64,000 nucleotides of DNA, taken from the NCBI GenBank assembly GCA_964425715.1, contig CAYRNO010000001.1, positions 10,645-74,644 of the forward strand, written 5' to 3'. A program made the translations under genes and the position numbers. This document shows positions 32,719 to 56,632 of this stretch, piece by piece. Below the pieces are notes generated by a model that saw nothing but the letters and a program-made list of their open reading frames with translations, searched no databases and was not told the DNA's origin. This DNA comes from an uncultured Candidatus Saccharibacteria bacterium (lineage in GTDB: Bacteria > Patescibacteriota > Saccharimonadia > CAILAD01 > BJGX01). The stretch's first letter is position 1. Every line of letters starts with the position of its first letter.

Positions 32719-32803
32719 AATAGTTACTTGTATTTATTATAGCCATCCAAGGTGATAATTAGCAAATAATTGATAAACTGTTAAAATAAAAAAGAGGTAA
32801 AAA

Positions 32804-33118
32804 ATGGCAAAGAAAAAGAAGCATAGAAAAACACGTAAGCAGAAAATCGCTCGAGCAAACCTTAATAAGGCCCAATCTGTAGATACTTCAGAGACAGGAA
32901 GTAGTATATCTTCAGTTGAATCTGAAAGTAAAAGAGTACTAGCAGAAGAATCAAACATAAATCCAGATAAAGAATTCGATTCTGTGTATTATGTTAAAAA
33001 AGATGTGAAAAGTTCACTAATCTTGGCCGGGATAATCATAGGCGTATTTGGTGTGATATATATATTACTATCTCAATCTTCTATTGGTGACCAGGTTTAC
33101 TCAATTATAAAACTGTAG
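32804..33118 (+). CDS. small tail-anchored membrane protein (hypothetical)
   Basis: 104 aa; basic N-terminus, C-terminal TM helix. Confidence 0.35.
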   Translation: MAKKKKHRKTRKQKIARANLNKAQSVDTSETGSSISSVESESKRVLAEESNINPDKEFDSVYYVKKDVKSSLILAGIIIGVFGVIYILLSQSSIGDQVYSIIKL

Positions 33119-34619: not shown

Positions 34620-34688
34620 TTACCCCCCTTTTTTTTTAATAATCATATATTAAACGAATAAAAAGCGAAAAACAAGCATCCAATCAAA

Positions 34689-35741: not shown

Positions 35742-35791
35742 ATATACCTCTTATGGTATCATATTGCTAGTTCTATTCAAAAAAGAGATAA

Positions 35792-36910
35792 TTGAGCTAT
35801 ATGAATAAACCAAAAACAATTTTAGTACTTTCTGCAAAGACCGGAGGGGGGCATCGAGCAGCAGCTCTGGCGACAATTAGTAGTCTCAATGCATTACCTG
35901 GCAAGTACAATATAATCCATCATGACATATTCGAGAATGCTCCACGACCTATCAATAGTATGCCAAAATTTTACTCCAAAATTACAAATGTAAAATCAGC
36001 CTGGGGTGCAATATACAAACTTACAGAGGGGAATCGACAATCTCAACTTACAATTAAAACTGGTGCAAGGCTTTATAAGAAAAATATATATAAGATTCTA
36101 AATGACTATCAACCAGATGTGATACTATCTTTTCATTTTGCAGCAAATGTTTTTCTACAGGAAGCTCAAGCGATGGACAGGCATATACCATTTATTACTG
36201 TAGTTACCGACCTCGCTACTTGTCATCCGATGTGGTTTGATAAGCGCAACGATGTGATCGTTGTGCCTTCTAATGATAGCTATACAAGTGCAAGAAAATA
36301 CGGAATAGCATCTTCAAAAATAAAGATCATTGGTTTGCCAGTTGCAAAAGATTTTTCAAATCACACGAATAAGATGAAAATGAAAAAGTTACTAGATTGG
36401 CCTACAGATATACCTACGATTCTCATAATGGCAGGAGGTGATGGCATGGGCAAAATAGCATCTTTGTGTAGAAAAATCGACAAGACAAAGCTTAATGTTC
36501 ATCTTGCTATAGTCGCAGGTAGAAATGAGAGTCTTTTCCAATCTCTAACACAGCGTAATTTCAAGAATCCAGTTACTATTTATAGATTTTGTGATGATAT
36601 ACCCACTATGATGCATGCATCAGACGTTTTACTCACAAAGGCCGGTCCAGGTACAATAACAGAATCTATTGTAAGTAATCTGCCTATAGTGCTTTATGAT
36701 TTTCTTCCTGGTCAAGAAGAAGGCAATATATTATATGTGGTAGAGAGTGGAGCGGGTGTTTGGGCTTCAACAAACTCCTTAGCTCTAAGGGCTACAGAAG
36801 ATATATTAGACGGTACAATAGAATTTGGTGGAGCTAAATATGAATCTGTACGAAAACAGCATGTTGATGCAGCTGATAAAATATCAAAATTAGTTATTAG
36901 TTATTTATAG
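35792..36910 (+). CDS. GT28-family glycosyltransferase (MGDG-synthase/UgtP-like diacylglycerol glycosyltransferase)
   Basis: 372 aa; N-terminal ILVLSAKTGGGHRAAALA (MGDG_synth GGGH motif); GT-B C-terminal half. Confidence 0.6.
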   Translation: MSYMNKPKTILVLSAKTGGGHRAAALATISSLNALPGKYNIIHHDIFENAPRPINSMPKFYSKITNVKSAWGAIYKLTEGNRQSQLTIKTGARLYKKNIYKILNDYQPDVILSFHFAANVFLQEAQAMDRHIPFITVVTDLATCHPMWFDKRNDVIVVPSNDSYTSARKYGIASSKIKIIGLPVAKDFSNHTNKMKMKKLLDWPTDIPTILIMAGGDGMGKIASLCRKIDKTKLNVHLAIVAGRNESLFQSLTQRNFKNPVTIYRFCDDIPTMMHASDVLLTKAGPGTITESIVSNLPIVLYDFLPGQEEGNILYVVESGAGVWASTNSLALRATEDILDGTIEFGGAKYESVRKQHVDAADKISKLVISYL

Positions 36911-36927
36911 ATTACAATTCAATAATT

Positions 36928-38028
36928 TTAGATAAGGCTCAATAAGAATTTTGATATATCATTGAGGGAACCAGTTTCGGTATATTTATTTAGATTTGTA
37001 GTATATATATTGTAGTGAGTGAGTATATCTGTAATTGCACCAGCTATTTGACTGGGTTCAAGAGCTACAATCCCAAGTCTATTATCTGATATATAAGCTG
37101 CATTACCGTTTTCTTGTCCTGGTATGATCTTGCTAACTACAACGGGTTTTTTCGCTACAATGCATTCCATAATACTTGATCCACCTGCTTTCGTGATAAC
37201 AATATCACTTGCTTTGACAAAGTCAGCCAAGCTACTTGTCCAACTGATAAGCATTGTATCGTTATGTTGTCTTGATTTGAGTTTTTTAAATAATTTATCA
37301 TCTTTGCCTGTAATAGTAATTATTTGAGAATCTATTGCCAATCGATTTATTTCGTTTAAAGTATCCTGGACGAATGATGGTTTCAAGCCGGATGCTAAAA
37401 AAAGGATGGTTTTTTGATTATTAGCTATGCCTAGCTGATTAAGTATTTGCTGACTCTTGCCATGATCGTAAAATGCGCTTTTTACGGGGTAACCCAATAC
37501 TTTAATCTTTATATTTGCAACACCCATAGCATGTAGAGATATTCTTGTCTCTTTGTTGGATACCAAGAAATAGTCTGGTTCTCCTATGATCCACGACGAA
37601 TGTATAGTAACAATATCGGTAACTACTGAGACCATGGGTGTCTTCTTAAACTCTTCTTGTCTTGCTAAGGATGCTATGTATTGCCAATGAGGAGAATTGC
37701 AGATAATCAGATCCGGAGATTTATTTCTAAAAAAGTTTAAAATTTTATCTCTACTAAAAATATAGTTGAGCTCATTGATAGCTTTTGAGGCTATTTCGGT
37801 GTCTGTCAATTCAAAGAAGAGTTTATACAGATAAGGTACGTATTTAGCTGCATCTATGTACATACGTTTTGTGGCTTTGTTTAGAAACTCACTGATTATA
37901 TCTGTAAAATCAACAATATCTACTTCTACTTTTTTGGTATTAACAAGCAATATTCCTTCACGTATTGCTTCTGCTGTAGACATATGGCCATGCCCATAGG
38001 AGGTTGTTAGAATTAATACTTTTTTCAT
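36928..38028 (-). CDS. GT28-family glycosyltransferase paralog (MGDG-synthase/UgtP-like)
   Basis: 366 aa; N-terminal VLILTTSYGHGHMSTAEAI; convergent with the paralog at 35792. Confidence 0.6.
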   Translation of the reverse strand: MKKVLILTTSYGHGHMSTAEAIREGILLVNTKKVEVDIVDFTDIISEFLNKATKRMYIDAAKYVPYLYKLFFELTDTEIASKAINELNYIFSRDKILNFFRNKSPDLIICNSPHWQYIASLARQEEFKKTPMVSVVTDIVTIHSSWIIGEPDYFLVSNKETRISLHAMGVANIKIKVLGYPVKSAFYDHGKSQQILNQLGIANNQKTILFLASGLKPSFVQDTLNEINRLAIDSQIITITGKDDKLFKKLKSRQHNDTMLISWTSSLADFVKASDIVITKAGGSSIMECIVAKKPVVVSKIIPGQENGNAAYISDNRLGIVALEPSQIAGAITDILTHYNIYTTNLNKYTETGSLNDISKFLLSLI

Positions 38029-38063
38029 TACATGTAGTATAGCAAATACGCTATAATTGCCCT

Positions 38064-39248
38064 ATGAAACATCTTGTAATCGGTTCTGACCTGTTTAAAC
38101 CCAGTATAGGTGGAACTGAAACAGTGACAGAGAATATGGCCCAAAACCTATCTAAAAAAGGTTTTCGAGTAACTGTTGTCGCACCAGTATCTAATGGAGG
38201 CAAATTTCCAAGTCTTCACAAAGATAACGGATACCAAATATTGCGAGTCAGATCTATCGGGTTGCCAATTCAAAATAATTTAAGATTTGCTTACAGATCA
38301 TACAGGCAGATTTCAGAATACTTTAGTAAAACAGAGAATAGAGTAGATATTATTCATGTCAATAATCCTTTTCCTTTAAGTAAAACACTACTCAAATATG
38401 CCAAACATAATAGTGTACCTTGTGTGGTTGGTGGGCATTTTATGCCTGAGAGCTTTACAGTGGGGTTAAGAACATTTGGAGATTTCCATAAGTATATTGA
38501 TAATTTAGGATGGAATCTTACAGTACGATTCTACAACAAAGCAAATGCTGTTGTTGCACCCACAAAGACGGCCATAAGTATTCTAAAATCACACGGGCTT
38601 AAGTTACCGACATATGTGATATCGAACGGGATAGATCTAAATTTAAATCATCCATTGAAAATCAATAAAACAGAATTAAAATCCAGAATAGGTTTGTATG
38701 CTAAGTATGTACTGACTTATGCAGGTAGATTAGGAGTAGAGAAGAGGATTGATGTTATAATTACAGCATTGTATAAATTACAGCAGCAGAACTTTGATGT
38801 ACAGTTACTCTTAATAGGTGACGGTAATGCTAAGCAAAAACTTAAAAAACTTGTTCATAAACTAGACATGGATGACAAGGTTATTTTTGCTGGATATGTT
38901 GGTGATACAAGTCAAAAGCAGAGACTATTCGCACTTAGTGACATATTTGTAATAGCATCACCAGTAGAGCTGCAAAGCATAGTGACACTAGAGGCAATGG
39001 CAGCAGGTTTACCTGTTGTTGCTGTCAACGAAGGAGCTTTACCTGAATTGGCCCAAAAAGGAATCAATGGTGATGTATTTCCTGAAGGAGATAGTACATC
39101 AATGGCTCGATGTATAGGGAATATCGTGCTTGATCCAGTAAAACTTAGGCAATATAGCCAATCTAGTCTTAAAATAATTAAGAATCATAATATTGAGGAT
39201 ACTTGGAGTCAATATTCAGATATGTATTTGGAAGTACTTGATTCCTGA
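38064..39248 (+). CDS. glycosyltransferase family 4
   Basis: 394 aa; VTLEAMAAGLPVVAV (EX7E region), GT-B fold. Confidence 0.75.
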   Translation: MKHLVIGSDLFKPSIGGTETVTENMAQNLSKKGFRVTVVAPVSNGGKFPSLHKDNGYQILRVRSIGLPIQNNLRFAYRSYRQISEYFSKTENRVDIIHVNNPFPLSKTLLKYAKHNSVPCVVGGHFMPESFTVGLRTFGDFHKYIDNLGWNLTVRFYNKANAVVAPTKTAISILKSHGLKLPTYVISNGIDLNLNHPLKINKTELKSRIGLYAKYVLTYAGRLGVEKRIDVIITALYKLQQQNFDVQLLLIGDGNAKQKLKKLVHKLDMDDKVIFAGYVGDTSQKQRLFALSDIFVIASPVELQSIVTLEAMAAGLPVVAVNEGALPELAQKGINGDVFPEGDSTSMARCIGNIVLDPVKLRQYSQSSLKIIKNHNIEDTWSQYSDMYLEVLDS

Positions 39249-39261
39249 TCTATAGGAAATA

Positions 39262-40086
39262 TTAATTGCACAATTCATAGTGCCACGGTTCACCCACAAC
39301 AGTTCTGCACAGACCATATTTACGAAATACATCATTTACTCCTGAAGTTTGAGCAAAATCAGTATTTATATCAACTGCCAATCCACGCTCGTGATTGGAA
39401 GTACCTGGTACAGCTACTGGAGCACTACCGCCTTTATTATAAAGACAGCTTTGCTCACTAAAACTACGCCATGCGGTATTGTAAGGTATATCTCTACCAA
39501 GATGAAGTTGTGCGCGCTGTAGTGCAGCAACCAAGTTATTATTTAGGTTAGTATGCCATACTCTAGCAGCCGTACAGTCTCCTCCTACAGCTACTTGGTT
39601 TGTTAATGGCATAAAGTTTCTTTGATTCATTACTACACCGTTAAAAATTGGTTTTCCAGCTCCCGTTTTATTTGCATTGGTTATTTCAAATGCAGTATTA
39701 ATAAATATTCCTCTTGGCGTCGTGTCGTTATTGGGATTGGCTAGTATCCAGTATCTTGCAATTCCTTTGGTGGCAAGTCCAGCGCTTTTTGTTTCTGTTA
39801 GAGGTGCTAGGGACTGTATTGCTTGCCCTGTATTTAAATTATAAACAGTAGCTTGATCCCATACTCTAATTTTTTTGTCAGCACTAAACATACTGCAGTT
39901 CAGACCTGGAGTTGAACATTTTATATTGTTGGCAGCGAAGCTATTATATATCAGTATAATACCTGTAACGGCTATAAGAAAAGTTACAACGAACAAAACA
40001 ATTCTAGATATTTTCTTTTTAGGTAAAAATTGAGTTTTTTTTACTCTTGATCTTGTAGATTTTGTAGGTTTTTTCTTAGACGGCAT
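39262..40086 (-). CDS. membrane-anchored D-alanyl-D-alanine carboxypeptidase (peptidase M15B, VanY-like)
   Basis: 274 aa; N-terminal TM anchor; Zn-ligand motifs SNHERGLAVDI and EPWHYE. Confidence 0.7.
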   Translation of the reverse strand: MPSKKKPTKSTRSRVKKTQFLPKKKISRIVLFVVTFLIAVTGIILIYNSFAANNIKCSTPGLNCSMFSADKKIRVWDQATVYNLNTGQAIQSLAPLTETKSAGLATKGIARYWILANPNNDTTPRGIFINTAFEITNANKTGAGKPIFNGVVMNQRNFMPLTNQVAVGGDCTAARVWHTNLNNNLVAALQRAQLHLGRDIPYNTAWRSFSEQSCLYNKGGSAPVAVPGTSNHERGLAVDINTDFAQTSGVNDVFRKYGLCRTVVGEPWHYELCN

Positions 40087-40548
40087 ATCGATAGAGCTTA
40101 TGTTGAATATGATAGCCTTATAATATGCAGTAGAGTTAATAATGTCAACAAACTACATAATAATTGACAATAATAACAATTGAGTGTAAAATATTCCTAA
40201 TGGGGCTGACTAGCTTTGACATAGAGAACATTAAAATATATTTGCGAGCCGGGCTGGAATGCACGTTAGCCGTTCCAAAAACTTAAGTGCAAATACACTT
40301 ATTAGTAAGATAAAAGCAGCGTTTACGTTGCCAACTCTTGCACCAGCATACGCTTAATTGAGTATGCCGTCTAACTTACTGACACCAGATAGATAAGTAG
40401 GCGCCAATTATCTGGTTGCTACATATTCGCCTAGTGCCGAAGATGGGTAAGCTCATAGTACTAGGAAGAGATCTACTTGTTTGTTGATTTATAGAGTAGA
40501 TATCTTTGAAAACAATTTCAAATCAACTATGCTTGTAGACGATATATA

Positions 40549-42093
40549 TTAATTCTTCATGGACGAGGGTGCGATTCCCTCCAGCTCCACCAAAAGGGAC
40601 TTTCGAGTAATTCGGAGGTCTTTTTTGTTTGGGGTCAACCTGTACAGGGTGCATATTGAGTTAGTGCTAACTTTTTTATTTGAGTTGAAGATAATTCCAT
40701 CAGGGAATAGCAATTGTTGGCACAAAGTGCGTTCATCTTGATTTAGTTCCCACCAATCTGTTTTTAATCTGTTACTATATTCCAGCCCAAACTTAACAAA
40801 TTCTACCAAATCCCCCTGTAGTTTATTTGAATCTGCTATTTGTTTAGATAACTCGCTAATCTCTAGCTGTATCTTTCTAATTTCAGCCTGTATACCGTCT
40901 TTGAACTCAGACGTCACTTTAGCAAGTTCTCTATATAGCCCAGACAACTCTATTTCGAGCGATTCTCGCTGCCTTTGAAGCGTTTTAAGACTTCTGATGT
41001 TATCTTGTTGCTTCTTATTCCAAACAGTTGCTAAAGCTCTCATAAAGTCTTTCTGTTGAGCATTTTGATAATTAACTTGCAGTAGTATATTAGTAATAGC
41101 CTTGTGTACATCTTGTCGATGATATTGTTTACCACATTTTCTGCAACGATACTTTGGGTAAAACTTACCATTACCATTACCTTGATTTGAACCTGTAAAC
41201 TTAGCTCCTGGTTGACAGTCGTGAATTAGTAATTTGTTCATTGGAAAGTTGGGGTTGTACTGCAATTTTCTAAAAGACCGAATCTTACGACCATTTATTA
41301 CCTCAACTATACTATCGTGTTCCTCCTTTGAAATCATTGGTGTGTGTAAACCATTCTCGCACCTTGCATTCACTTGTTTACCCACAACTATAATGCCGCA
41401 ATAGTAAGGGTTCACTATAAACTTTACGAACTTATCTATCTTCATTGGTGTTCTGCCGTTACTAATGAATTCGGTTTTGTTGAGTTGCTTTAGTGCTTCA
41501 GATGGTGTAGCCATCCTGTTTGCGATGCTTTTTAGTGCTTGTTGAAAAGGTACTCCCTGAATCGGGTGGAAAACGTGTACTCCTGGCTTATCGCTATGCA
41601 TATAACCTGGCAAAGGTGGGAAAGTATAACGACCTTCTTTGACTGCAGCCCTATGACCAGTAACTGACTTTCTTTGTCTTTCCTCGTTACTGCTTTCAGC
41701 AGCAAAGTATTTCATAAATTTCATAAGCTTAGCTGTCATATCGTCAGTGTTTAGTTCAGGGTCAGAGGCATACCACACTTTTACACCAACCATTCGAAAT
41801 TCAACCTCAAAATGAAAAGCTTCATCTACAGACCTCATAAACCTATCAGGTTCGTCAACGATAAGATATTTGACTGCTCGATTTTTTCTGCAAAAATCTA
41901 ACATTTCTCTAATGTCTCTACGCTTAACATTTGTTCCTGCTTTACTCGAAACATCGCCAGACCATTCTTTAATAATCTCAGCATCAAGTTCTTGAGACGC
42001 TCTCATAACAGAACTCTGTTGTCTGTTTAGGCTATTGCTTTGCTTCTGTTCAGCAGTCGAGACCCTACAGTTTGCTATTGCTTTTATTTTCAC
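40549..42093 (-). CDS. large serine recombinase (phage-integrase type)
   Basis: 514 aa; N-terminal catalytic block IANCRVSTAEQ (serine recombinase RxSTxxQ); zinc ribbon CRKCGKQYH; C-terminal coiled coil. Confidence 0.85.
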   Translation of the reverse strand: MKIKAIANCRVSTAEQKQSNSLNRQQSSVMRASQELDAEIIKEWSGDVSSKAGTNVKRRDIREMLDFCRKNRAVKYLIVDEPDRFMRSVDEAFHFEVEFRMVGVKVWYASDPELNTDDMTAKLMKFMKYFAAESSNEERQRKSVTGHRAAVKEGRYTFPPLPGYMHSDKPGVHVFHPIQGVPFQQALKSIANRMATPSEALKQLNKTEFISNGRTPMKIDKFVKFIVNPYYCGIIVVGKQVNARCENGLHTPMISKEEHDSIVEVINGRKIRSFRKLQYNPNFPMNKLLIHDCQPGAKFTGSNQGNGNGKFYPKYRCRKCGKQYHRQDVHKAITNILLQVNYQNAQQKDFMRALATVWNKKQQDNIRSLKTLQRQRESLEIELSGLYRELAKVTSEFKDGIQAEIRKIQLEISELSKQIADSNKLQGDLVEFVKFGLEYSNRLKTDWWELNQDERTLCQQLLFPDGIIFNSNKKVSTNSICTLYRLTPNKKDLRITRKSLLVELEGIAPSSMKN

Positions 42094-42117
42094 AAACTAT
42101 CTCCAAAAACCATAAAA

Positions 42118-42164
42118 GGCAGTCTCTGGGATACGTCGTTATGACACGACAAACAGAGACTGCC
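42118..42164 (-). terminator. 11-bp perfect inverted repeat (GGCAGTCTCTG ... CAGAGACTGCC) between the cargo genes and the recombinase
   Basis: Perfect 11-bp stem with a 25-nt loop that is itself partly self-complementary; on the minus strand it is followed by a U-rich tract, so it likely terminates the 92-aa gene upstream of the recombinase. Confidence 0.45.
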
Positions 42165-42334
42165 ATTTATAAATTCTAGATTAAGAACCAAGCTTGTCAT
42201 AATTTGTATCCTTAACCATTATCTTATTTTTACCTGTTGAATGCAACTTTTTTATATTAATATATCTTCCATATAAGAAGTTTGCCCACTCAGTTAACTC
42301 CTCTTGACTTAAAGGTTTTTGTTTAGTTTTGGCA

Positions 42335-42613
42335 TTACTTTTCACTAAAACTCAACCCTTCAATAATATCATCTGCAATACTTTGTATTTTATCCACTAA
42401 CTCAGCTGATTTGAGCCGTATTTCAGCCTTGTTTGAGACATTAACAATATACTCAGCTGTTTCTGTTAAAACACGGCATTCAAATAGTCCTAATACAGCT
42501 TTTTCTAAGGTAGGGTAGTAGCCATCGGTATTCCATTGAGAGCCAGCTTGTTTCTGTACCATATAGCCGTGCAGGTAACTTTTTATTCGATAGTGTTTGT
42601 ATCTGATAGTCAT
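42335..42613 (-). CDS. hypothetical protein (island cargo)
   Basis: 92 aa ORF; no recognisable motif. Confidence 0.35.
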   Translation of the reverse strand: MTIRYKHYRIKSYLHGYMVQKQAGSQWNTDGYYPTLEKAVLGLFECRVLTETAEYIVNVSNKAEIRLKSAELVDKIQSIADDIIEGLSFSEK

Positions 42614-42673
42614 ATACCAAGACTACCAATGGAGTCTATAGGTGTATAACCAGTTATCTACCTATGTTGCTGG

Positions 42674-43501
42674 TTAGACATCTATCTTATTTTGTTGCTT
42701 AATAAATCTATCTGCAAGTTTTTGGAGGTTTACATATGACAAATCTAAACTTGAAGTATCTAGGTCTGCATATTCTTCTGCTAGTTTTGCCTCAACTGTT
42801 CTCCAGGTATTATATTTGCTTTCATTCTTCAAGAGCCAAGCCATTTGTCCAATCTTAAGGTTAAGGGGGTCAATACCTACCTTTGGCTTAGTTGGCAATT
42901 GGCTTAATGCCTTATCTATTTGTGACTTGTTGTCATCCAGGTACTTTTTTATTCTAGAGATAGAAGTTCTGTAGTTAAAATATATTAGCGGTGTATACAG
43001 ATAGTTTTTTGCATACGATTTTTCGATACTAGACTTTATGAGTCTACCTTTAATGCCTTTGAGTGGTCCTGGTGGTATATATAATCCAAGCGGTTGGTCT
43101 GGAGGTATAGGGAGGGTGTGAGTTAATATTACAACTTCTATAGAAAATACCCAATTTCTAGGAAGTTTATATCTGCTAGCTAGCCACTCTGCCCAACCTT
43201 TTGTGCCATATTCAAATTCTTTATTTGCTGTATGAACAAATTCTACAAGCTTTTCTAGGTTATTTTGCTTTGGGAAACTGTATAATTTTTTCATTTTAAG
43301 CTTGTTACGAATCCTGTCGAGCTGGTCATAAAAGCTATCACACCAAGATAAAACCTCAGCTAACTTATAATCCGACAAATCATAGCTGTTTTTAGAATAG
43401 CCAGGCAAATAAGTTATTTCAAAATCCCTGTCGTTATCTAGACTTTTGATTGATGAGTCATTCATATTAACTAATATACAGCTTAATTGTCTAATAGGCA
43501 C
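42674..43501 (-). CDS. hypothetical protein (island cargo)
   Basis: 275 aa ORF; no recognisable motif; the start may be the internal Met (MNDSSIK). Confidence 0.35.
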   Translation of the reverse strand: MPIRQLSCILVNMNDSSIKSLDNDRDFEITYLPGYSKNSYDLSDYKLAEVLSWCDSFYDQLDRIRNKLKMKKLYSFPKQNNLEKLVEFVHTANKEFEYGTKGWAEWLASRYKLPRNWVFSIEVVILTHTLPIPPDQPLGLYIPPGPLKGIKGRLIKSSIEKSYAKNYLYTPLIYFNYRTSISRIKKYLDDNKSQIDKALSQLPTKPKVGIDPLNLKIGQMAWLLKNESKYNTWRTVEAKLAEEYADLDTSSLDLSYVNLQKLADRFIKQQNKIDV

Positions 43502-43915
43502 AGCGTAACAAATATGTTTTTGTAAGTAGTTATACAGGTGTAGTCAGTGTATACACAGTATCGTAATTTCACACAGCCATTTATCAACTCAAAGGATACC
43601 TACAAACAACAAACTATATTATATATATCAAAGCATAGTGTCTTTGTTAGAGAGTAAAACAGGGGATATACCACCTGTATAGTTAAGCAATGTTAAGTAA
43701 AAGTAACTACAAAGCAAGTTAAACAAGTAGCCTTACATATTCTTGTAGCCATTTGTATTGCTACTCTGGACATATTCAGATAACCATTTATCGCTTCACA
43801 TATACAAAAATTATATATATAAACTCGGTTTGCCTATCAAGACACTGGTATATATGCCTATATGAGCCTGTATCTGTATATTAAGATATGCCCTAGAAAC
43901 TTCTTTTCTATATAT

Positions 43916-44086
43916 TTATAACTTTGGGAGTAGCTTTTCAGCCTTTAGTTTACTGAGGGGTGTGTCTTTGAGTTGTTGGAGTTTAGCGAATATCTTTTTG
44001 GCTCCAACAGGTGTGTCGGCATAGACAACTATCTGGGTTAACTCTTTTTTATCTTTAAGCCAGACATTGTAAAAGTATTTTGTCAT
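43916..44086 (-). CDS. small hypothetical protein (56 aa), tightly packed behind the 174-aa gene
   Basis: Hand-translated: MTKYFYNVWLKDKKELTQIVVYADTPVGAKKIFAKLQQLKDTPLSKLKAEKLLPKL; its ATG lies 3 nt after the stop of the upstream gene; below the 60-aa cut-off of the ORF track. Confidence 0.3.
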   Translation of the reverse strand: MTKYFYNVWLKDKKELTQIVVYADTPVGAKKIFAKLQQLKDTPLSKLKAEKLLPKL

Positions 44087-44089
44087 AAG

Positions 44090-44614
44090 CTACCTAACGA
44101 GTTCGTGTTGTTCCATCCATTCAATTAGAGGTTTGCATATAGCCTCGGTAAGTAGCATATTAAGCTTTAACATAAAAATCATACTACTACTAGGTTCACT
44201 TATTATTTTTGACTTTTCAGTTAGTAGTAAAGTTACTAAATCAGAATTCACCCCATCGTAACCTGCCAGTGGGTTCGTATCAACATCTGAATAATAGGTA
44301 TATATCTGGATAAATTCAATTACTAATTTGTATATTACTTTTCCCACATCGTCTTTGATAAATAAATCTTTAATATATTGTTCTATCGTATTATACGAAG
44401 GTTCACCATATTGATTTTTAACTACAGTCAGCTTAATCGATACTAAATACGCCCATAAACAATTTTTAATTCTATTATTATTATGGAGTTTTGCATCAGG
44501 GTCTGCTTCCTGAATAAGCCTAATAATTACCTCTGAATAAGTATCAATTGATTTATAAGATTCGTTGTATATATAAGTCGCAACAGAGCTCTCAGTTATT
44601 TCTTTCTTTTTCAT
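44090..44614 (-). CDS. hypothetical protein (island cargo)
   Basis: 174 aa; start overlaps the stop of the upstream membrane protein gene. Confidence 0.35.
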   Translation of the reverse strand: MKKKEITESSVATYIYNESYKSIDTYSEVIIRLIQEADPDAKLHNNNRIKNCLWAYLVSIKLTVVKNQYGEPSYNTIEQYIKDLFIKDDVGKVIYKLVIEFIQIYTYYSDVDTNPLAGYDGVNSDLVTLLLTEKSKIISEPSSSMIFMLKLNMLLTEAICKPLIEWMEQHELVR

Positions 44615-45315
44615 TAAGAACCCACTGCACCAGCAAGTATAAGATTTAAGATTGCAAACACAAAGATTATAGTCGTAATTACAACATAAACTTTTAGTGT
44701 ATTTATGACTGTTCTTTTTTTACCTTTGGGGTAAAATTTCTCGTGCCTCACCATATTGTAAAGACCACCCATTAATAGCCCAATGATTATAAATACCCCT
44801 ATTGCAAGTGCAGGTCCAATTATGTGACCACCCCAGCTGTAACTTTCATTTATAGAACCAACTGTAACGTTGTAAATTAGAGTAATAAAATAAGACATCA
44901 ATAGTAGAACTGAAAGGGTTATAGTATCCTTGTCGTTCTTCTTATCTTTCTTTGAAGTTTTATAGTTACTTTCTTTAGATAACTTTTCATCAAGCAATTC
45001 TGTAAAATAACCAGATATTAGCATAAATGGGGTGGTCATCAAGCTCATAGCGATAACTATTAAATAACCACCAATAACCACAAACAGCACAAAATGTAAA
45101 AAATTAGAGAAGAAAAGACCCCACGCTACATATAGATAATATATCCCGACTATAAAATACAAGATATTCATTACCACCACTGATAAACCATATATAGTTT
45201 TCATTACTGCAGCTTTCTGTAGAACTAGTGATATTAAGTAACCTATAAAGCAAATTATTGTCCAGATTAAAAGGTATAGAACAAAAATTACTAAAAAGTA
45301 GAATATTGGATGCAT
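44614..45315 (-). CDS. polytopic membrane protein (island cargo)
   Basis: 233 aa; about 6 hydrophobic helices with a K-rich cytoplasmic loop. Confidence 0.4.
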   Translation of the reverse strand: MHPIFYFLVIFVLYLLIWTIICFIGYLISLVLQKAAVMKTIYGLSVVVMNILYFIVGIYYLYVAWGLFFSNFLHFVLFVVIGGYLIVIAMSLMTTPFMLISGYFTELLDEKLSKESNYKTSKKDKKNDKDTITLSVLLLMSYFITLIYNVTVGSINESYSWGGHIIGPALAIGVFIIIGLLMGGLYNMVRHEKFYPKGKKRTVINTLKVYVVITTIIFVFAILNLILAGAVGS

Positions 45316-45345
45316 ATATCTCCCAATCTAGAAGCAACAGTATTT

Positions 45346-45900
45346 TTAATAAGACTCACAACCATATCCATCATAGTCGCCATCCAGCCTGTGTTTATCG
45401 TATCCATATACTTCAACTGTGTAGCCTATATCTGCACAATCAAGGTCGTATGATACGTTAGGTACACAACCAGAGTAGTTTGTGTCGCAGTTCGGAGGTG
45501 GGGGTGGTTGTTTTGTGCCTATTGCAGTTCTTTCTGAGACTGGCTGAGTTGTAACTGCCTCACTAGCTACTACACGGCTTATCTCAACTCCATTCTCTAG
45601 AGTAACTGTATATGTTGTAGTTTTCTCACCGTTTATACATCCTTGCGTGACATTTGATTTGCCAACCAGTAAGTTTGGGTCATTATACTGTTCCTTAGTA
45701 CAAGGTATAGGTGTTTTTGTAGTAGTAGTTGTTGTTTCTATTTTTTTGGTTTGTTCTGCGTTATCAGCCTTAGGGCTATTTGACTGATAATTCGAGGCAA
45801 ATGCAGCAACAGCAAACAGTGGCACTAGAGCAGAAAGAGCAATCAAGCCTAATCTGCTTTCTTTGGATAAACTCTTAAACCACTTTATTAACTTTTTCAT
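45346..45900 (-). CDS. secreted protein with Thr-rich linker and C-terminal Excalibur (Ca-binding, DxDxDGxxCE) domain
   Basis: 184 aa; signal peptide/anchor MKKLIKWFKSL...LFAVAAFA; TTTTTKTP linker; PPPPP; C-terminal LDGDYDGYGCE Excalibur motif. Confidence 0.55.
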   Translation of the reverse strand: MKKLIKWFKSLSKESRLGLIALSALVPLFAVAAFASNYQSNSPKADNAEQTKKIETTTTTTKTPIPCTKEQYNDPNLLVGKSNVTQGCINGEKTTTYTVTLENGVEISRVVASEAVTTQPVSERTAIGTKQPPPPPNCDTNYSGCVPNVSYDLDCADIGYTVEVYGYDKHRLDGDYDGYGCESY

Positions 45901-46216
45901 CTAATTCAACCTTTAATTCGATACTAGAGCATAATATTGCTTTTTGCAAGCATACGGTTATAGCTTAGTGTAATTCACTCCGTGCACCTCTATACATCCG
46001 TTAAGCTTGTATCTCACATATTGTGAATACAGTAACTCTTTCCAGTTGTTTACATTTTCAGAAATACTGTGCCAACTTTTATCTATTCGCTCCACCAAAA
46101 AACGATCAAGATTGAGACTTGGTCTTTTTTTGTGTCTAGATACCTCGAGCTATAGAGTCTTTCAGCAAGAATTAAACCAGACTATTATAGGTCTGGTTTT
46201 TTGATAGAAACGTATT

Positions 46217-47239
46217 TTATTGGGGTGGGATTGATCTAGGACGGAGCTTCATGAGCTCCCCCTTAAGGGTGTAGGCACTATTGGGCACATCCCAGTGGCA
46301 CATATCACGAACTGGGCAAGACCCACAAAATTGTCTATATCTCTCAAGTTCAGACCCGCTCCAGATGGGTATGTAAGCGGGAGTCTCAGTCTGGCGAGCA
46401 CGATATTGTCTAGACAGGGTTCTATTGCCGGGGTTCTTGGCGCAACCCACGCTAGAAAGCAGCCAGACGGCATTACAGAGCTCTATAGGGCTTATGTTGT
46501 GACGATTGCAGTAATCGGCGAACAAACCCCTTAGGACCGTCTGAAGGTGCTCAGAATAGATATTTCTACCTATTGATTCGCCAGAGAACTTCACCATCTC
46601 AGTCTCTATGCATACTCGCATGACATGAAAGTCGATCGGTATTGGGAAGGGGATTGGCTCGATTATATCTGTAGCTATGTAGAAATACATAAGCATACTG
46701 ACCATCTTATACTGGAAACCCATAAACCCCTGTCGGTGAGTAAACTCTTTGGTCTTTCTGTGCCGTCTGCTCTTATTGCGAATACGATCACAGGCTTCCT
46801 CATAGCTCTCTACACCGACGAATATTTTGCGAGGGTCTCCATCATACCAATCCAACAATCTTTGAGCGTTCTCAATCCAATGTGGCGGAGCGGATCTCTT
46901 GAGGTATCTCAGATCAACTCTTTCTAATGATGCGGTGATAGATTCTGGTTTGATCCTAACTATCTCATAAGGATCAAATAACCTTGGCCTTCTGGAGTAA
47001 AGACGAGCAAGCTGTTTGGCGGCGGTGTTACTCTTAATACCGCCTTTCATATATAGACATAGTACAAATAGAAACATTGCATGCTCGACGGAGCCCAACT
47101 CCAATCTTCTTTCGAGATCAGCCACTTCATGAGGTAATTGGGTGGTCGGAAGACCATATATAAATCTCCCGTCTCGGTATGAATCCAAGAGAGTTCCTAG
47201 GACTTTCTCAACGCGATCATGGTCGACTGTGATCTGCAC
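46217..47239 (-). CDS. endonuclease III-like HhH-GPD family DNA glycosylase homolog (divergent), GC-rich foreign gene
   Basis: 340 aa; PIDFHVMRVCIETEM matches the Nth PVDTHIFRVCNRTQ active-site helix; C-terminal C-x2-C-x5-C (CGSCPVRDMC) resembles the last three Cys of the EndoIII [4Fe-4S] loop; GC about 50% against about 35% background. Confidence 0.45.
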   Translation of the reverse strand: MQITVDHDRVEKVLGTLLDSYRDGRFIYGLPTTQLPHEVADLERRLELGSVEHAMFLFVLCLYMKGGIKSNTAAKQLARLYSRRPRLFDPYEIVRIKPESITASLERVDLRYLKRSAPPHWIENAQRLLDWYDGDPRKIFVGVESYEEACDRIRNKSRRHRKTKEFTHRQGFMGFQYKMVSMLMYFYIATDIIEPIPFPIPIDFHVMRVCIETEMVKFSGESIGRNIYSEHLQTVLRGLFADYCNRHNISPIELCNAVWLLSSVGCAKNPGNRTLSRQYRARQTETPAYIPIWSGSELERYRQFCGSCPVRDMCHWDVPNSAYTLKGELMKLRPRSIPPQ

Positions 47240-47460
47240 AACAGCTCCTATCGTAAGGTACTAATATAATTATTGATTAATAATAAATGTATTGCAATAA
47301 ATCTATAGGACAAAGAATAAAGTCTAGTATTTTAGAAGTATTTATGCTATACTATATCTCAAGTAGGTTTCTTTCTTTAGCGCTCTTGATTCAAGATGAC
47401 ATAGCAAGAATAGAAGTGGTCGTCCTGCTCCAAGAGAATTAAAAGGAAAAAATAATCTAG

Positions 47461-47718
47461 ATGAAAAAGTTATTTGTTGGCAACTTGCCATACACAGTTA
47501 CTTCAGAACAACTTAGCGAAATATTCGGTGAGTACGCAGAAGTAACTTCTGCAAATGTTATTACAGATCGTATGAACGGTCGTAGTAAAGGCTTTGGTTT
47601 TGTCGAATTAGCTGAGAGTGCAGATCTAAATGCTGTTATCGAAGCTACTAATGGCAAAGAGATTGAAGGACGAGCTATCACAGTTAGTGAAGCACGACCA
47701 CAACAACCTCGCGACTAA
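47461..47718 (+). CDS. RRM-type RNA-binding protein
   Basis: 85 aa; RNP2 LFVGNL and RNP1 KGFGFVEL. Confidence 0.8.
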   Translation: MKKLFVGNLPYTVTSEQLSEIFGEYAEVTSANVITDRMNGRSKGFGFVELAESADLNAVIEATNGKEIEGRAITVSEARPQQPRD

Positions 47719-47730
47719 GCTACATTATAA

Positions 47731-47772
47731 AAAACAGGTCAATGAATTTAAATTTCGGGCCTGTTTTTTTGT
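47731..47772. terminator. bidirectional rho-independent terminator (A-run, AACAGG/CCTGTT stem, T-run)
   Basis: AAAAACAGG...GGCCTGTTTTTTTG; a second A-run/ATCTTG-CAAGAT/T-run hairpin at about 47813-47850 serves the convergent FBA gene. Confidence 0.5.
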
Positions 47773-48025
47773 ATTAAGTATTCTTAGTTCAAAGCAATTT
47801 AAATCGTATACAAAAAAAATCTTGAAAAATAATTTCCAAGATTTTTTTAAATGAATTAATAATTTACAAAACAAATTGGCGTCGCCTTGTGAGCTTCGCC
47901 AATCTGTTGAAAAGAGCTTTGTTTTTGTTTTGAGTAATTTTAGTGTGCAGCACTACATCCATAATAAAGCCTAAGCATAAGCCTTGTCAACAACTTTTTT
48001 GAAAGTTTTTATAAGATTTTTTGAA

Positions 48026-49030
48026 TTATAATTTGCCAAGTCGTGCATTTGAATTTTGTTTGAGGTGTTTTTCAAATATATTTTGGGCATTTTTTTCATT
48101 TTCTGTCTTGCCAAGCCAAGTCCTAAGTGCTGGCTCCTGTAAAGCTCTAGAAAATGAGAATGTAATAGGAATCGATAGTTTAGACTGGCTTTCTATAGCA
48201 TTTAGATTAGCTGTAGCTTGTTCTGGGGTTTGCCCACCAGATAAGAATACAATACCGGCGATATCTGTAGGTACTCTTTTTGAAAAGATATCTAGAGTAT
48301 GATTAGCAACTTCTTCTGGTGAGGATTGTACTTTATAGGATTTTCCAGCCATAGACATACTTGTTTTTAGTATTACAGCACTTAGATCTACTTTGTAGGC
48401 TAATAGTAATTCAAACAAGACTCTATAGACCTGAGATAATACCTGGCCACATTCTTCGATGGTGTGCTCACCATCATATAAAACTTCTGGCTCTACTATA
48501 GGGACTATTTCGTTACTCTGAGCAATGCTTGCATATCTTGCCATAGAATTTAGATTAGAGTGGAGGGCTGTAGAGGTTGGTAGTTTTTTATTGGCATCTA
48601 CAGTAAATACGCAACGCCATTTTGTAAATTTGGCTCCTAGGCTACTATATTCTTTAAGACGTTCGGACAATCCGTCGAGCCCTTCTGTATACATTTCATC
48701 AGGGAAATTATCGAGCGACACAAGACCCTTGTCTACCTTGATACCTGTCAATATGTTGTTTTTCTTGAATAGTTCCGCAAAAAGTACTCCGTTATCAGTT
48801 TTTTGGTGTATTGTCTCTTCATAGAGTATAACTCCACTTATATATTTTGCGAAGTTGGGCGTAGTGAAGAGTAATTGACGGTATTGCCTACGGGTCTCTG
48901 GATCCTTGGTAATACCTAGTTCATCAAAACGCTTGTCGCATGTTTTATTGCTCTCGTCAGCCGCCAATATGCCCTTGGGTGACTCCATTAGCTGTTTTGC
49001 AGTACTTTGAAGTGAATTATTAGTCATCAT
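48026..49030 (-). CDS. fructose-bisphosphate aldolase, class I
   Basis: 334 aa; KGILAADES N-terminal motif and overall class I FBA pattern. Confidence 0.85.
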   Translation of the reverse strand: MMTNNSLQSTAKQLMESPKGILAADESNKTCDKRFDELGITKDPETRRQYRQLLFTTPNFAKYISGVILYEETIHQKTDNGVLFAELFKKNNILTGIKVDKGLVSLDNFPDEMYTEGLDGLSERLKEYSSLGAKFTKWRCVFTVDANKKLPTSTALHSNLNSMARYASIAQSNEIVPIVEPEVLYDGEHTIEECGQVLSQVYRVLFELLLAYKVDLSAVILKTSMSMAGKSYKVQSSPEEVANHTLDIFSKRVPTDIAGIVFLSGGQTPEQATANLNAIESQSKLSIPITFSFSRALQEPALRTWLGKTENEKNAQNIFEKHLKQNSNARLGKL

Positions 49031-49206
49031 TTATCCTTAAGATAAATAATATCATAGCATAAGCACAAATACACCATACATAACAAAATATTACAACATA
49101 AATATAGTGCTACAGCATTAAATGTATGTAATTAAAACGTACTATTACAGGTTACAAGATACTTATTTTACTAAATTGAAAATGTCCTAAGAACTACATA
49201 TGTATT

Positions 49207-49656
49207 CTATTTCTTGTTTTTGATATCACGACCAGCGTCTCTTAACATATCTCGTATTTTGATAGATTCACGTTTGTCGTAGCGTTTTTTGCTTTTACCT
49301 ATTATAAGCTCTACCTTTACTAGGCCTTTTTGAATACCGATATAGAGAGGAACGACAATCTTTCCTTCCGATTTTATAGCGTTTAGTAGGCTTGCAATCT
49401 CTTTTTTGTGTAATAATAGTTTTCTATCTTGAGTGGGTTCATATTCTTCAGTAGCAGATGCTAACTTATATCTGTTAATATGAGCATTTTTCAGGTATGC
49501 TTCATTGCCTAATATCCCAATATAACTTCCTTTGAGACTTACATTGCCTAATTTGACACTCTTGACCTCTTGACCTGTTAATACCACACCAGCTATTAGG
49601 TGATCGGTAATTTCATAATCGTATTTTACTCGCCTGTTGATTGCTACTTTCTTCAT
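49207..49656 (-). CDS. smpB: SsrA-binding protein
   Basis: 149 aa; KKVAINRRVKYDYEI...GQEVKS canonical SmpB. Confidence 0.85.
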   Translation of the reverse strand: MKKVAINRRVKYDYEITDHLIAGVVLTGQEVKSVKLGNVSLKGSYIGILGNEAYLKNAHINRYKLASATEEYEPTQDRKLLLHKKEIASLLNAIKSEGKIVVPLYIGIQKGLVKVELIIGKSKKRYDKRESIKIRDMLRDAGRDIKNKK

Positions 49657-49690
49657 ATCTGCTATTATAACCTACCAAAATATCAAATAG

Positions 49691-51442
49691 GTGCAAAGAA
49701 TGACTATAATTAGCTATAATATAATAATGAAAAGCTTAAAATCAGATGTATACGATATAGTTGCTAGCATTTTTGTGGAAGTATTTAGTACCGATCCAGT
49801 TGAATTTAACGTAGATTATTGTGATCTCAAATACGGGCATTTTGCCTGCAATGTTGCTCTTACAAATTCGAAGAATCTTAAGCTCAACCCTGTGGTAGCC
49901 GCAAATCAGTTGGTAAAAAAACTGAAAGATGATGATTGGATGAAGAATGTAGAAGTTCAGAAACCAGGATTTATTAATATTTCCCTCAAAGACAAAATAC
50001 TACTAGAGGCTTTGTATAATAGGTATCCGGATGAAATCCGGCAATATATAGAGATGGGTGGTACCGATCAGACAGTTGTAATCGATTATTCACATCCGAA
50101 CATTGGCAAACCTATGTCAGTACATCATTTGCTTTCTACGGTCATAGGAGATGCTATTAAACTAATCTATAAAGACACTGGGCATAATGTCATAGCAGAT
50201 AATTTTGTTGGTGATATGGGCACTCAGTTTGGCAAATTGATATATGCTATCAAGACTTGGGGTGATATGCAGGCTATAGAGGCTAATCCAGTACCAGAAC
50301 TATTGGCGCTTTATGTGAACTATCATGTAGAATCCGAGAAGAACCCAGAGCTAGACGATTATGCTAGATTGGAATATAAAAAGATTGAGGACAACGATCC
50401 AGAGAATAGGGCATTACTAACAAAAGTACAGGCTTGGAGTATGGCGGAAATGGAGATGATTTATAGACTTCTTGGTGTGGTATTTGATTATTATAATGGT
50501 GAGAGTTTTTATGAAGATAAACTAAAAGACATAGTGGATCTCGGTATCAAGAAAGGAATATTTGTAAAAAGCGAAGGTGCATTGGTCTGTGAATCAGATA
50601 ATCCAGATGATCCGCCAGCTCTTATTCAGAAGAAAGATGGAACTAGTTTATATCTCACAAGAGACTTGGCGAGAGTTGCATATTGGGAGCAACAGTGGCA
50701 TCCAGATCTCATGATAAATGTGGTAGATGTGGCCCAAACTCTTCAGATGAGCCAAGTATATTCAGTTTCAGAGAAGCTAGGTCTCACGGATGCCAGAAAC
50801 ATCCATGTAGTATTTGGAAGGATGGAGTTCAAGGATAAATCTATGAGCACTAGAAGGGGTAATGTAATATTTATTACCGATCTCATAGATGAAACAAAAC
50901 GCAGAGTGCTTTCTCAAATAGTTTCACTTTCTAAATCTTTGAGTAAGGATGATCAAGTACAACTTACAGATATATTGGCTATCAATTCGATTAAATACAA
51001 TATACTTAAGCAGAATCGGTCATCCAGTATAATCTTTGATTGGGATAATATGTTAAATATCGAAGGAAATAGTGCTCCATATCTGGCATATACAGCAGTC
51101 AGGATGCAATCTATTATAAGAAAGAGTGAAGGATATATCGACAAATCAGATAGTACTAACAGTAAAGCTCTTGAGGAATTAGAACTGGCTGAAATCAAAC
51201 TTATTTTGCATGTTGATAAATTAGCTGAATCTTATCATGAAGCTAAGAACAATTTTCAACCAAGCATACTTGCAAGTTATTGTTATGATATCTGTAGGCT
51301 ATACAACAGCTGGTACAACAGTTATAAGATAATTGAAGAGAGTGATGCAAAACCACACAGGATAAGGCTCAATTGTTTAACTCTAAAGGTGGTTAAACAG
51401 TGTTTTGAGTCTCTCGGTTTGAGAATTCCAAACAAGATGTAA
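49691..51442 (+). CDS. argS: arginyl-tRNA synthetase
   Basis: Class I ArgRS: SHPNIGKPMSVHHL (HIGH-like), catalytic core, C-terminal DALR anticodon-binding domain; the start may be the Met at 49727. Confidence 0.85.
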   Translation: MQRMTIISYNIIMKSLKSDVYDIVASIFVEVFSTDPVEFNVDYCDLKYGHFACNVALTNSKNLKLNPVVAANQLVKKLKDDDWMKNVEVQKPGFINISLKDKILLEALYNRYPDEIRQYIEMGGTDQTVVIDYSHPNIGKPMSVHHLLSTVIGDAIKLIYKDTGHNVIADNFVGDMGTQFGKLIYAIKTWGDMQAIEANPVPELLALYVNYHVESEKNPELDDYARLEYKKIEDNDPENRALLTKVQAWSMAEMEMIYRLLGVVFDYYNGESFYEDKLKDIVDLGIKKGIFVKSEGALVCESDNPDDPPALIQKKDGTSLYLTRDLARVAYWEQQWHPDLMINVVDVAQTLQMSQVYSVSEKLGLTDARNIHVVFGRMEFKDKSMSTRRGNVIFITDLIDETKRRVLSQIVSLSKSLSKDDQVQLTDILAINSIKYNILKQNRSSSIIFDWDNMLNIEGNSAPYLAYTAVRMQSIIRKSEGYIDKSDSTNSKALEELELAEIKLILHVDKLAESYHEAKNNFQPSILASYCYDICRLYNSWYNSYKIIEESDAKPHRIRLNCLTLKVVKQCFESLGLRIPNKM

Positions 51443-51604
51443 TTATAATAGTATTAATTACAACTTAAATAATTATTCGATAATTAACAGATTAGAATAG
51501 TGTTGTTCAAAATGCTTGTATATTATAGGTAGCAAAATAGCAATATTACTTTTATGATACATTCAAATAGTCCTTCTCAGTTTAAGTAGTATAATATTGA
51601 TATA

Positions 51605-54933: not shown

Positions 54934-55101
54934 GTAATATTGTAGTGCAAATTTATATAACTTGTAATCTATATTAACCCGTTATAAAAGAAAAAAACGT
55001 ATATACTTCATTATTTAAAAAATACCAAAAATTTCTATAAGTAAGCGATATTTATAATAGTTATTATTGAAAAATACTTATATATGTTATATAGTTAGAG
55101 C

Positions 55102-56613: not shown

Positions 56614-56632
56614 TTTCTGATATAATAAATCT

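Follow-up and report, generated by a model that had tools for sequence, protein, structure and literature searches.

A putative integrative element at the tmRNA gene of a Saccharibacteria bacterium, with an attachment site inside its serine recombinase gene

The ssrA locus and the limits of the element

In this study, we focus on a 64,000-nt stretch of contig CAYRNO010000001.1 (GCA_964425715.1; hereafter the window) from an uncultured Candidatus Saccharibacteria bacterium, in which the gene for a large serine recombinase, followed by a series of genes on the same strand, adjoins the 3′ end of ssrA, the gene for transfer-messenger RNA (tmRNA), and we consider the mobile element that these genes probably form. 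An earlier interpretation, drawn from the letters of the window without database searches (the sequence-only reading), had proposed an integrated element of about 7 kb at 40100-47300. The open reading frames (ORFs) that it named, encoding proteins of 92, 275, 233, 174, 56, 184 and 340 aa along with the VanY-like and RRM proteins, are all where it had placed them (Table 1); the element itself spans 5,505 bp (40596-46100, equivalently 40584-46088), as delimited by a 12-bp direct repeat and by an empty site in a relative.

Table 1. Features of the window at and around the element.
Feature	Position	Strand	Basis or remark
VanY-like gene	39262-40086	-	host, outside element
Sigma-70-like promoter of ssrA (host), TTGACA-17-TAAAAT	40164..40192	+	consensus match only
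tmRNA gene ssrA, tag ANTLISKIKAAFTLPTLAPAYA then stop; integration target	40202..40592	+	ARAGORN and Rfam RF00023
Large serine recombinase, integrated truncated-tail form, 514 aa	40549..42093	-	Pfam, PHROG, alignments
attL core, left copy of GCTCCACCAAAA	40584..40595		last 9 nt of tmRNA plus 3 nt; crossover within
Putative replacement terminator for tmRNA, hairpin 40598-40605/40613-40620 then TTTTTTGTTT	40598..40630	+	fold and covariation
54-aa protein directly upstream of recombinase, motif E..E[FW]A.FLY..Y	42181..42345	-	tblastn, clustering
92-aa cargo protein (75 aa in other assemblies)	42335..42613	-	near-identical matches only
275-aa cargo protein	42674..43501	-	matches only itself
414-bp intergenic region between two minus-strand gene blocks	43502..43915		probably regulatory
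56-aa cargo protein	43916-44086	-	tightly packed trio
174-aa cargo protein	44090-44614	-	tightly packed trio
233-aa polytopic membrane protein	44614-45315	-	tightly packed trio
184-aa secreted/anchored protein, G5 domain, C-terminal Excalibur-like DxDxDGxxCE motif	45346..45900	-	Pfam
Detached 3′ end of recombinase ORF, free-form tail (L)VERIDKSWHSISENVNNWKELLYSQYVRYKLNGCIEVHGVNYTKL then stop	45958..46098	-	tail alignment, hidden Markov model
attR core, right copy of GCTCCACCAAAA	46089..46100		exact repeat
Hairpin and T-run read as displaced native ssrA terminator (GATCAAGATTGAGACTTGGTC then TTTTTTTGTG), host DNA	46104..46134	+	terminator scan
340-aa GC-rich host gene, outside element	46217..47239	-	present in element-free relative L089
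RRM protein	start 47461		host flank

The stretch 40090-40548, which had been called non-coding and locally GC-rich, holds the tmRNA gene; Rfam model RF00023 is covered over its full length at 126.7 bits, and a promoter candidate agreeing with the consensus at 11 of 12 positions ends 10 nt upstream of the tmRNA start. The 3′ CCA end of ssrA is the attachment site (attB), and the core formed by its last 9 nt and the 3 nt beyond them, GCTCCACCAAAA, occurs in exactly two exact copies within the window, one at each end of the element, compared with 0.2 copies expected by chance when one mismatch is allowed. The tmRNA gene itself is intact, and the displaced fragment of it comprises only the 9 terminal nt, which lie inside the right-hand repeat. 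A repeat search with a minimum length of 14 missed this 12-bp repeat, and a 32-nt search allowing up to three mismatches found no second copy of the tmRNA 3′ end.

The comparison with a syntenic genome that the sequence-only reading had recommended defined both ends. Candidatus Saccharibacteria bacterium AMR_MDS_0256 (L089), found by a genome scan with the flanking aldolase, is collinear with the window at 32509-40600 (86.5% nucleotide identity) and at 46167-59028 (94.7%), and has about 57 bp where the window has the 5.5-kb element. Its ssrA encodes the same tag peptide and differs from that of the window at 22 of 391 positions, none of them in the last 84 nt, and the gene order is tmRNA, a terminator hairpin directly after it, and the 340-aa gene. 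Aligned in this way, the L089 locus is an empty site, that is, an unoccupied attB. Because L089 has a hairpin and T-run directly after the tmRNA CCA end, the similar structure just beyond attR in the window is read as the native ssrA terminator, moved 5.5 kb off by integration. Absence of the block from the nearest relative was thus borne out, while the atypical composition that might accompany a foreign block was not: the element has 35.2% GC and the window 36.2%, and base composition was accordingly discarded as an argument for island status.

A recombinase reading frame divided by integration

The 514-aa protein matches Pfam Resolvase (PF00239, 5.3e-17, above the cut-off) and a PHROG integrase family (1.3e-41). 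In agreement with the sequence-only reading, which had recognized a large serine recombinase by its RVSTAEQ motif, R10, V11, S12 (the catalytic serine) and Q16 of this motif are invariant in both homologue alignments made (24 and 57 sequences), and D80, R84, C293, C317 and C320 are invariant among the 24; the Pfam Recombinase domain is matched below threshold (0.0056). The AlphaFold model of a full-length homologue, P0027 (mean predicted local distance difference test score, pLDDT, 87.6), comprises a catalytic domain, helix E, a recombinase domain, a zinc ribbon and coiled-coil helices at 351-430, and Foldseek relates this model to full-length serine integrase-DNA complexes (9y66, 9dxd and 9iu2, including Bxb1) with E values of about 6e-12. 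Judged by these alignments and this model, the protein is a large serine recombinase with a catalytic serine, a C-terminal recombinase domain, a zinc ribbon and a coiled coil, and it shows neither the truncation nor the loss of the catalytic serine that had been named as grounds for doubt. Exact look-ups of the window recombinase and of P0001 returned no record.

The recombinase ORF overlaps the last 44 nt of the tmRNA gene on the opposite strand. The 514-aa form takes its last 12 residues (LEGIAPSSMKN plus stop) from the strand opposite the tmRNA 3′ end, and LVELEGIAPSS near the C-terminus corresponds to the T-arm and acceptor stem of the tmRNA, translated in antisense. The attachment site of the element, attP, lies inside this ORF, about 45 codons before its stop, instead of at 40090-40548 or 43502-43915, where att sites had been suspected. 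Its 12-bp core is identical to the last 9 nt of the tmRNA plus 3 nt, so that the tmRNA gene is made whole again on integration. A minus-strand ORF that reads (L)VERIDKSWHSISENVNNWKELLYSQYVRYKL... and lies close within the right end of the element represents the remainder of the frame, being 48% identical over 27 aa to P0027 when compared with the long recombinase tails and matching a hidden Markov model (HMM) of these tails at 2.7e-18. The circular form thus encodes 546 aa with a conserved helical tail, whereas in the 514-aa integrated form this tail is exchanged for the 12 residues antisense to tmRNA.

The same alternation is visible among the homologues, which form 569 clusters at E <= 1e-10 and whose C-termini fall into three classes: a tmRNA class with endings antisense to tmRNA (...LVEL[ERAV]G[IT]AP.S), a tRNA class with endings antisense to tRNA (...LVRV[KRQ][RG]L, then stop), and a long-tail class (...LV...KS.HSI..E...RWR..L...Y). 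Wherever a long-tailed recombinase was looked up, its contig proved to be small, with overlapping ends that identify it as a circle: L001 of 4,719 nt, L005 of 6,537 nt, and L002, L003 and L004, which are circular permutations of one identical 4,606-bp unit, each from a different sequencing run. Since long tails sit on circles, circularization of 40596-46100 was predicted to rebuild a 546-aa ORF. A search with the 184-aa G5 cargo protein then retrieved L098 (ENA ERZ27258552, contig k141_138053), a contig of 5,646 nt with a 141-nt terminal overlap, whose 5,505-bp unit matches the predicted excised circle with 0 mismatches, carries the predicted attP junction, and joins the tail in frame to the rest of the recombinase in an intact 546-aa ORF ending ...KSLLVERIDKSWHS...NYTKL and a stop. 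An assembly artefact is unlikely, because length, junction and the absence of mismatches had been predicted before L098 was found. The existence of the exact 5,505-bp circle in another metagenome indicates, at the level of sequence, that precise excision occurs in nature. In silico, the 12-bp core shared by attL and attR, the empty attB of L089 and the attP circle L098 have the form expected of precise site-specific recombination products.

Integrated copies identical to that of the window also occur in SRR14932634 and SRR9852197, and a search for the attP junction of the window element in IMG/VR gave no match. Two Logan contigs from these runs, L097 (SRR9852197; window 43813-40584) and L096 (SRR14932634; window 43817-40567), are 100% identical to the element; L097 ends together with the 12-bp core, exactly at its final base, and L096 ends 17 nt further into the tmRNA. 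Such ends fit a branch of the assembly graph at att, as mixed forms would give, while proving nothing, and they are not counted as evidence.

With both cores, the empty site and the circle in hand, we consider it highly probable that the block is a 5,505-bp integrative mobile element that was inserted by its own large serine recombinase at the CCA end of ssrA. A fixed relic island that is no longer mobile would account for the host-like GC content (35.2% against 36.2%), yet this explanation is barely tenable and already contradicted by an intact recombinase, two perfect cores, a tail remnant that is still open, the L098 circle with its 0 mismatches and the absence of the block from the closest relative.

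What the exchange of C-termini means for the enzyme is less certain. If the tail swap matters, the recombinase of the integrated state would differ functionally from the free-state enzyme, and we tentatively propose, as a possible though rather doubtful reading, that the family consists of self-sensing serine integrases in which integration removes the helical tail and the 514- and 546-aa forms differ in directionality, stability or partners. If true, this would constitute a built-in integration/excision switch, analogous to integration-dependent immunity and coupled to a dual-coding terminator segment. It is a substantial possibility, somewhat short of even, that the change is instead a neutral by-product of placing attP within the ORF, both forms acting alike and the tail having no regulatory role, as would suit integrated-form endings that are simply dictated by the antisense strand of the tRNA or tmRNA gene, with lengths from 3 to over 30 residues, and the position of all recognized recombinase domains upstream of the crossover. 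Neutrality is harder to reconcile with a free-form tail conserved across clades that share only about 40% identity and predicted to be helical (pLDDT 82-92 in the P0027 model), with tail-coding remnants kept open in 43 integrated loci, where the tail HMM detects them on the strand of the recombinase and 3.6-10.1 kb upstream of its 3′ end, or with an attP position in the ORF that is kept family-wide, even across the change of target from tRNA-Gly to tmRNA.

Some loci carry several tail remnants in series upstream of one recombinase gene, three in L081 (1226-3297) and two in L075 (3987-4980), a pattern suggestive of repeated insertion and decay at a single site, or of tandem arrays there.

A putative terminator antisense to recombinase codons

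Immediately inside the left end of the element, a hairpin followed by a T-run on the tmRNA-sense strand lies antisense to recombinase codons N-K-K-D-L-R-I-T-R-K-S, the T-run opposite the conserved K-K codons and the hairpin within the D-x6-K-S stretch, which otherwise varies. For 40585-40640, the folding energy is -24.3 kcal/mol, and its z-score relative to dinucleotide shuffles is -4.85. A hairpin with an invariant T-run recurs 5-13 nt after the CCA, on the sense strand of the tRNA or tmRNA, in 54 of 59 unique family sequences, that is, in every correctly anchored member, with a mean z of -3.7 against mononucleotide shuffles. Covariation was tested in two gap-free alignments. In A5 (26 sequences), 97.1% of cells are paired and 6 of 8 pairs show compensatory changes; in A4 (17 sequences), the values are 96.1% and 4 of 6. 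None of 500 shuffles reached the observed score in either alignment, and all slid-register controls scored clearly below the true register. Frequent U-G pairs (e.g., 21 of 26 sequences at one position) pair only on the tRNA-sense strand, which favours a structure formed by the RNA, within the transcript of the tRNA or tmRNA gene.

Structure and covariation together suggest that the element brings its own terminator for the RNA gene that it invades. Integration cuts the tmRNA off from its native terminator, and the element-borne hairpin and T-run would take its place, terminating tmRNA or tRNA transcripts and guarding both the RNA 3′ end and the recombinase gene from read-through. About 45 nt would then specify recombinase residues on one strand and a covarying putative terminator on the other, a clean natural case of dual coding, which may also explain the otherwise odd conservation of the N-K-K-D...K-S motif.

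Family, cargo and kinship with known elements

As far as can be judged from its members' sequences, the same design, with attP in the recombinase ORF and an RNA gene as target, recurs throughout a large recombinase family, in over 50 metagenomic loci of which most lie at tRNA-Gly(GCC). The recombinase ORF ends antisense to the 3′ end of tRNA-Gly in 46 (45 GCC, 1 CCC), of tmRNA in 7 and of tRNA-Glu in 2 of the 83 loci compared, which were drawn from metagenomes and IMG/VR and include that of the window; the loci with a tmRNA target form a clade 48-64% identical to the window enzyme, except L070 (about 38%). The junction cores shared by both ends are TGGTGC(GGG) or TGGTGGAG(CT), the reverse complements of the tRNA or tmRNA 3′ ends ...GCACCA or ...CTCCACCA, which places the crossover within the final nucleotides of the RNA gene, its encoded CCA among them. 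The family is apparently centred on Saccharibacteria and other bacteria of the candidate phyla radiation.

One sub-clade (L039, L056, L066, L067 and L081) has the core CTGCACCA and ORF endings ..LVQ[HD][SR] followed by a stop, and its junction is free of tRNA and tmRNA genes; no tRNA was found there by Rfam (L066, L067 and L081) or by ARAGORN (all five loci). The junction lies at about 11,530-11,560 in the 21-kb loci, the DNA beyond it is conserved between loci, and this DNA resembles the final ~35 codons of a same-strand protein gene (..DAFQTAAIDAQEDYKLKHLVEQFQLSG, then stop); the sub-clade may have switched to a protein-gene target.

Across elements, the only conserved genes are the recombinase and a protein of about 55 aa directly upstream of it. 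The 54-aa version of the window was found by tblastn in L002-4, L006 and L008 and belongs with clusters 1, 12, 21 and 24, and a small ORF bearing its motif precedes the recombinase in at least 47 of 82 loci. From its position and conservation in these sequences, it is a candidate directionality factor or regulator. The other genes would be exchangeable accessory cargo.

For the cargo of the window element, the earlier statement that it has no recognizable function holds. Searches of billions of proteins with the 275-, 174- and 92-aa proteins gave no match other than the queries themselves and near-identical copies (for the 174-aa protein, only itself among 1.84 billion cluster representatives), and the 233/174/56-aa trio has no Pfam, PHROG or PADLOC family at threshold. 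Searches of Pfam, PHROGs, PADLOC and NCBIfam gave a single functional match at threshold, the G5 domain (Pfam, 1.3e-17) of the 184-aa protein. The latter had been described as a secreted Excalibur-domain protein; the secreted ORF stands, the significant domain is G5, and Excalibur is matched only below threshold (0.02), with DGDYDGYGCE visible in the sequence. An AlphaFold model of the 275-aa protein made without an alignment is unusable (mean pLDDT 39). The 92-aa protein has one weak PHROG match, phrog_154 'replication initiation protein' (1.8e-5), and an 83%-identical variant of it on P0123, a 589-nt ENA contig, points to at least one diverged sister of the window element in circulation.

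The 43502-43915 region probably has a regulatory role and could be an operator or origin. It contains promoter-like sites and three copies of the motif [AC]CCATTTAT(C), at 43568-85, 43735-54 and 43775-92. No att site or Rfam RNA was found there, a permissive Rfam search of the element having returned only the tmRNA. The region also holds TATATATA runs, and two Logan contigs of the element start in it.

More can be said of sister elements, whose cargo is represented by 145 clusters. Five loci carry the Gabija proteins GajA (4e-118) and GajB (1e-126); Cthe_2314-type HEPN, ADP-ribosylglycohydrolase, nSTAND3, KAP NTPase and protein kinase families are found, as are N6 and C5 methylases with Mrr, HNH or MutH-like nucleases (restriction-modification), and G5 proteins recur in L001 and L015. 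For the window element, by analogy with these sisters, a defence or cell-surface role is a guess; a defence function had been offered as an example by the sequence-only reading, and the PADLOC check that it advised gave no match to any defence model. Two loci contain LOOT RNAs (RF03000) above the gathering score, L006 at 2670-2777(-) with 69 bits and L070 at 2591-2703(+) with 61 bits; the former lies inside a sister element (115-4752), and the window element has none.

The gene content bears on how the element persists and moves. It has no recognizable transfer machinery and probably moves as a circle, by DNA uptake or hitch-hiking. No capsid, terminase, portal, packaging or tail genes were found inside it with PHROGs, which gave the integrase/invertase matches of the recombinase and weak matches for the 54-, 92- and 275-aa ORFs; the PHROG endolysin and tail matches belong to the host VanY-like gene, outside the element. 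A prophage is accordingly rejected, as it had been by the sequence-only reading, which favoured an integrative island or satellite-like element. A phage satellite or miniature-virus remnant, packaged by a helper phage of Saccharibacteria, would fit the family's size of 3.6-10 kb, the Sf6-type small terminase-like gene of one sister element and the three family members on contigs listed as viral by IMG/VR, and is nonetheless a distinctly unlikely explanation, given that the window element lacks capsid, portal, terminase and packaging genes, that the IMG/VR contigs are 37-45 kb long and the element is only a 7.4-kb part of the one that was mapped, and that family cargo is dominated by defence-type genes. 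These three contigs (L086-L088, IMG/VR sample 3300045988, the only family members in that viral collection; L086 is the one mapped) lie beside tRNA-Gly and, for all their viral label, may represent pieces of a host genome or larger prophage regions.

It is likewise improbable, though less so, that the element is an integrative plasmid-like episome, a self-replicating 5.5-kb circle for which integration at ssrA is one state of the life cycle, with, for example, the 92- or 275-aa protein serving replication and the 414-bp intergenic region serving as origin. Several independent metagenomes yielded circles as contigs of their own, and the recovery of one circle in three runs suggests an appreciable copy number; the phrog_154 match and the repeated intergenic motifs could be read in the same sense. 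Against this, no Rep, relaxase, primase or partition domain was found in the element or among the 145 sister-cargo representatives, which also lack a capsid; only the recombinase and the 54-aa protein are conserved family-wide, leaving no conserved replication module; and the PHROG match is weak, in a protein without detectable relatives.

Several points weigh against the account given here of an integrative element moved by its own recombinase and carrying a terminator. Palindromic half-site symmetry in attP and attB reaches at best 10 of 24 matches, and the crossover dinucleotide was not located. The L098 circle could be a replicating episome instead of a transient intermediate, and the hairpin overlaps one arm of attP, where it might play a role in recombinase binding. 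Functional statements on the cargo of the window rest on analogy, because this cargo has no detectable relatives. Finally, the family, the split ORF and the antisense terminator are not described in the accessible literature, most subscription journals lying outside it; the family of small elements is apparently undescribed.

The 340-aa gene, which the sequence-only reading had counted as cargo under the label of an EndoIII-like glycosylase, is host DNA, because the empty site of L089 carries it, and it was rejected as part of the element. It is 99.1% identical in L089, where neighbouring proteins are 85-96% identical, and has 46.4% GC in a genome of 36% GC; such values may reflect recent transfer, or unusual constraint on a gene that adjoins the tmRNA site. 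The glycosylase label has only sub-threshold matches behind it, namely similarity to the archaeal 8-oxoguanine glycosylase AGOG, and a Cys cluster lies at the C-terminus. Elsewhere in the window, a 6S RNA (19943-20108(+), 47.8 bits, just over the gathering score) and a class A RNase P RNA (25551-25922(+), 219 bits) are ordinary host genes unrelated to the element.

Genomic islands at tRNA and tmRNA genes are a textbook feature of tyrosine integrases. In the phage large serine integrases Bxb1, phiC31, TP901-1 and A118, attP is separate from the int ORF, and insertion takes place in protein genes or at intergenic sites. The window recombinase shares their arrangement of catalytic domain, helix E, recombinase domain, zinc ribbon and coiled coil; it is, however, only 13-15% identical to phage large serine integrases, and its sequence match to solved structures is confined to the catalytic domain. 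The closest parallel is provided by the ssrA islands of Dehalococcoides, in which the large serine recombinase DsiB inserts at the 3′ end of the tmRNA gene (McMurdie et al. 2011, PMC3146451). In both cases, a serine recombinase of about 520-540 aa, likened here by its arrangement, is encoded on the reverse strand beside attL, the target is the 3′ end of a single-copy tmRNA gene, cargo is variable and transfer genes are lacking. The Dehalococcoides islands, however, insert in the T-loop with a 20-bp repeat, whereas the window element inserts at the CCA end with a 12-bp core (6-12 bp in the family). They also carry a six-gene module (the small recombinase DsiA, RecF-, ParB- and Mom-like genes, and a pseudo-tRNA); domain searches of the window element found no second small serine recombinase and no RecF-, ParB- or Mom-like domains, and the only conserved partner of the recombinase in its family is the ~55-aa protein. 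An attP inside the recombinase ORF characterizes the window family and is not reported for the Dehalococcoides islands.

According to the Islander study, no serine recombinase was known to have a tRNA gene as its target (PMC4383910). The window element resembles the tyrosine-integrase islands of Islander and TIGER in its 3′ tRNA/tmRNA target, in the carried segment that restores the gene and in the direct repeat that marks its ends, and differs from them in that its only recombinase is of the serine family and its repeat is only 6-12 bp; an intact gene with a displaced fragment, as Islander looks for, is present, and a tyrosine integrase is not. Attachment sites within protein genes also have precedents. 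In mycobacteriophage BPs, attP lies inside the repressor gene, with free and integrated forms of 136 and 103 aa (PMC4557955), and in archaeal 'suicidal' integrases of the SSV type, att lies inside int, an arrangement called exclusive to archaea (PMC8371274). In all three systems, free and integrated states differ in a C-terminus; the divided gene is the integrase itself in the SSV type and the window element, unlike BPs, a tyrosine-recombinase system that splits its repressor. Unlike the SSV-type tyrosine integrase, which is cut into inactive halves, the bacterial serine integrase of the window loses only its last ~45 residues.

The interest of the element therefore lies in its integration module and not in its cargo: attP and a putative terminator sit within its own ORF, and the tail belongs to the free state alone. 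Apart from the ssrA islands of Dehalococcoides, no serine-recombinase precedent was found, and the window family widens the target range of serine integrases to tRNA and tmRNA genes; if the proposed reading is true, its members would be natural serine integrases with attB at a near-universal tRNA/tmRNA 3′ end. Short natural attB sites in conserved RNA genes could serve genome engineering of hard-to-manipulate bacteria, and the relocation of the tail on integration offers a testable mechanism for directionality control. As exchangeable carriers of defence genes in tiny genomes with few known mobile elements, these elements bear on how epibionts of the Saccharibacteria type acquire accessory functions.

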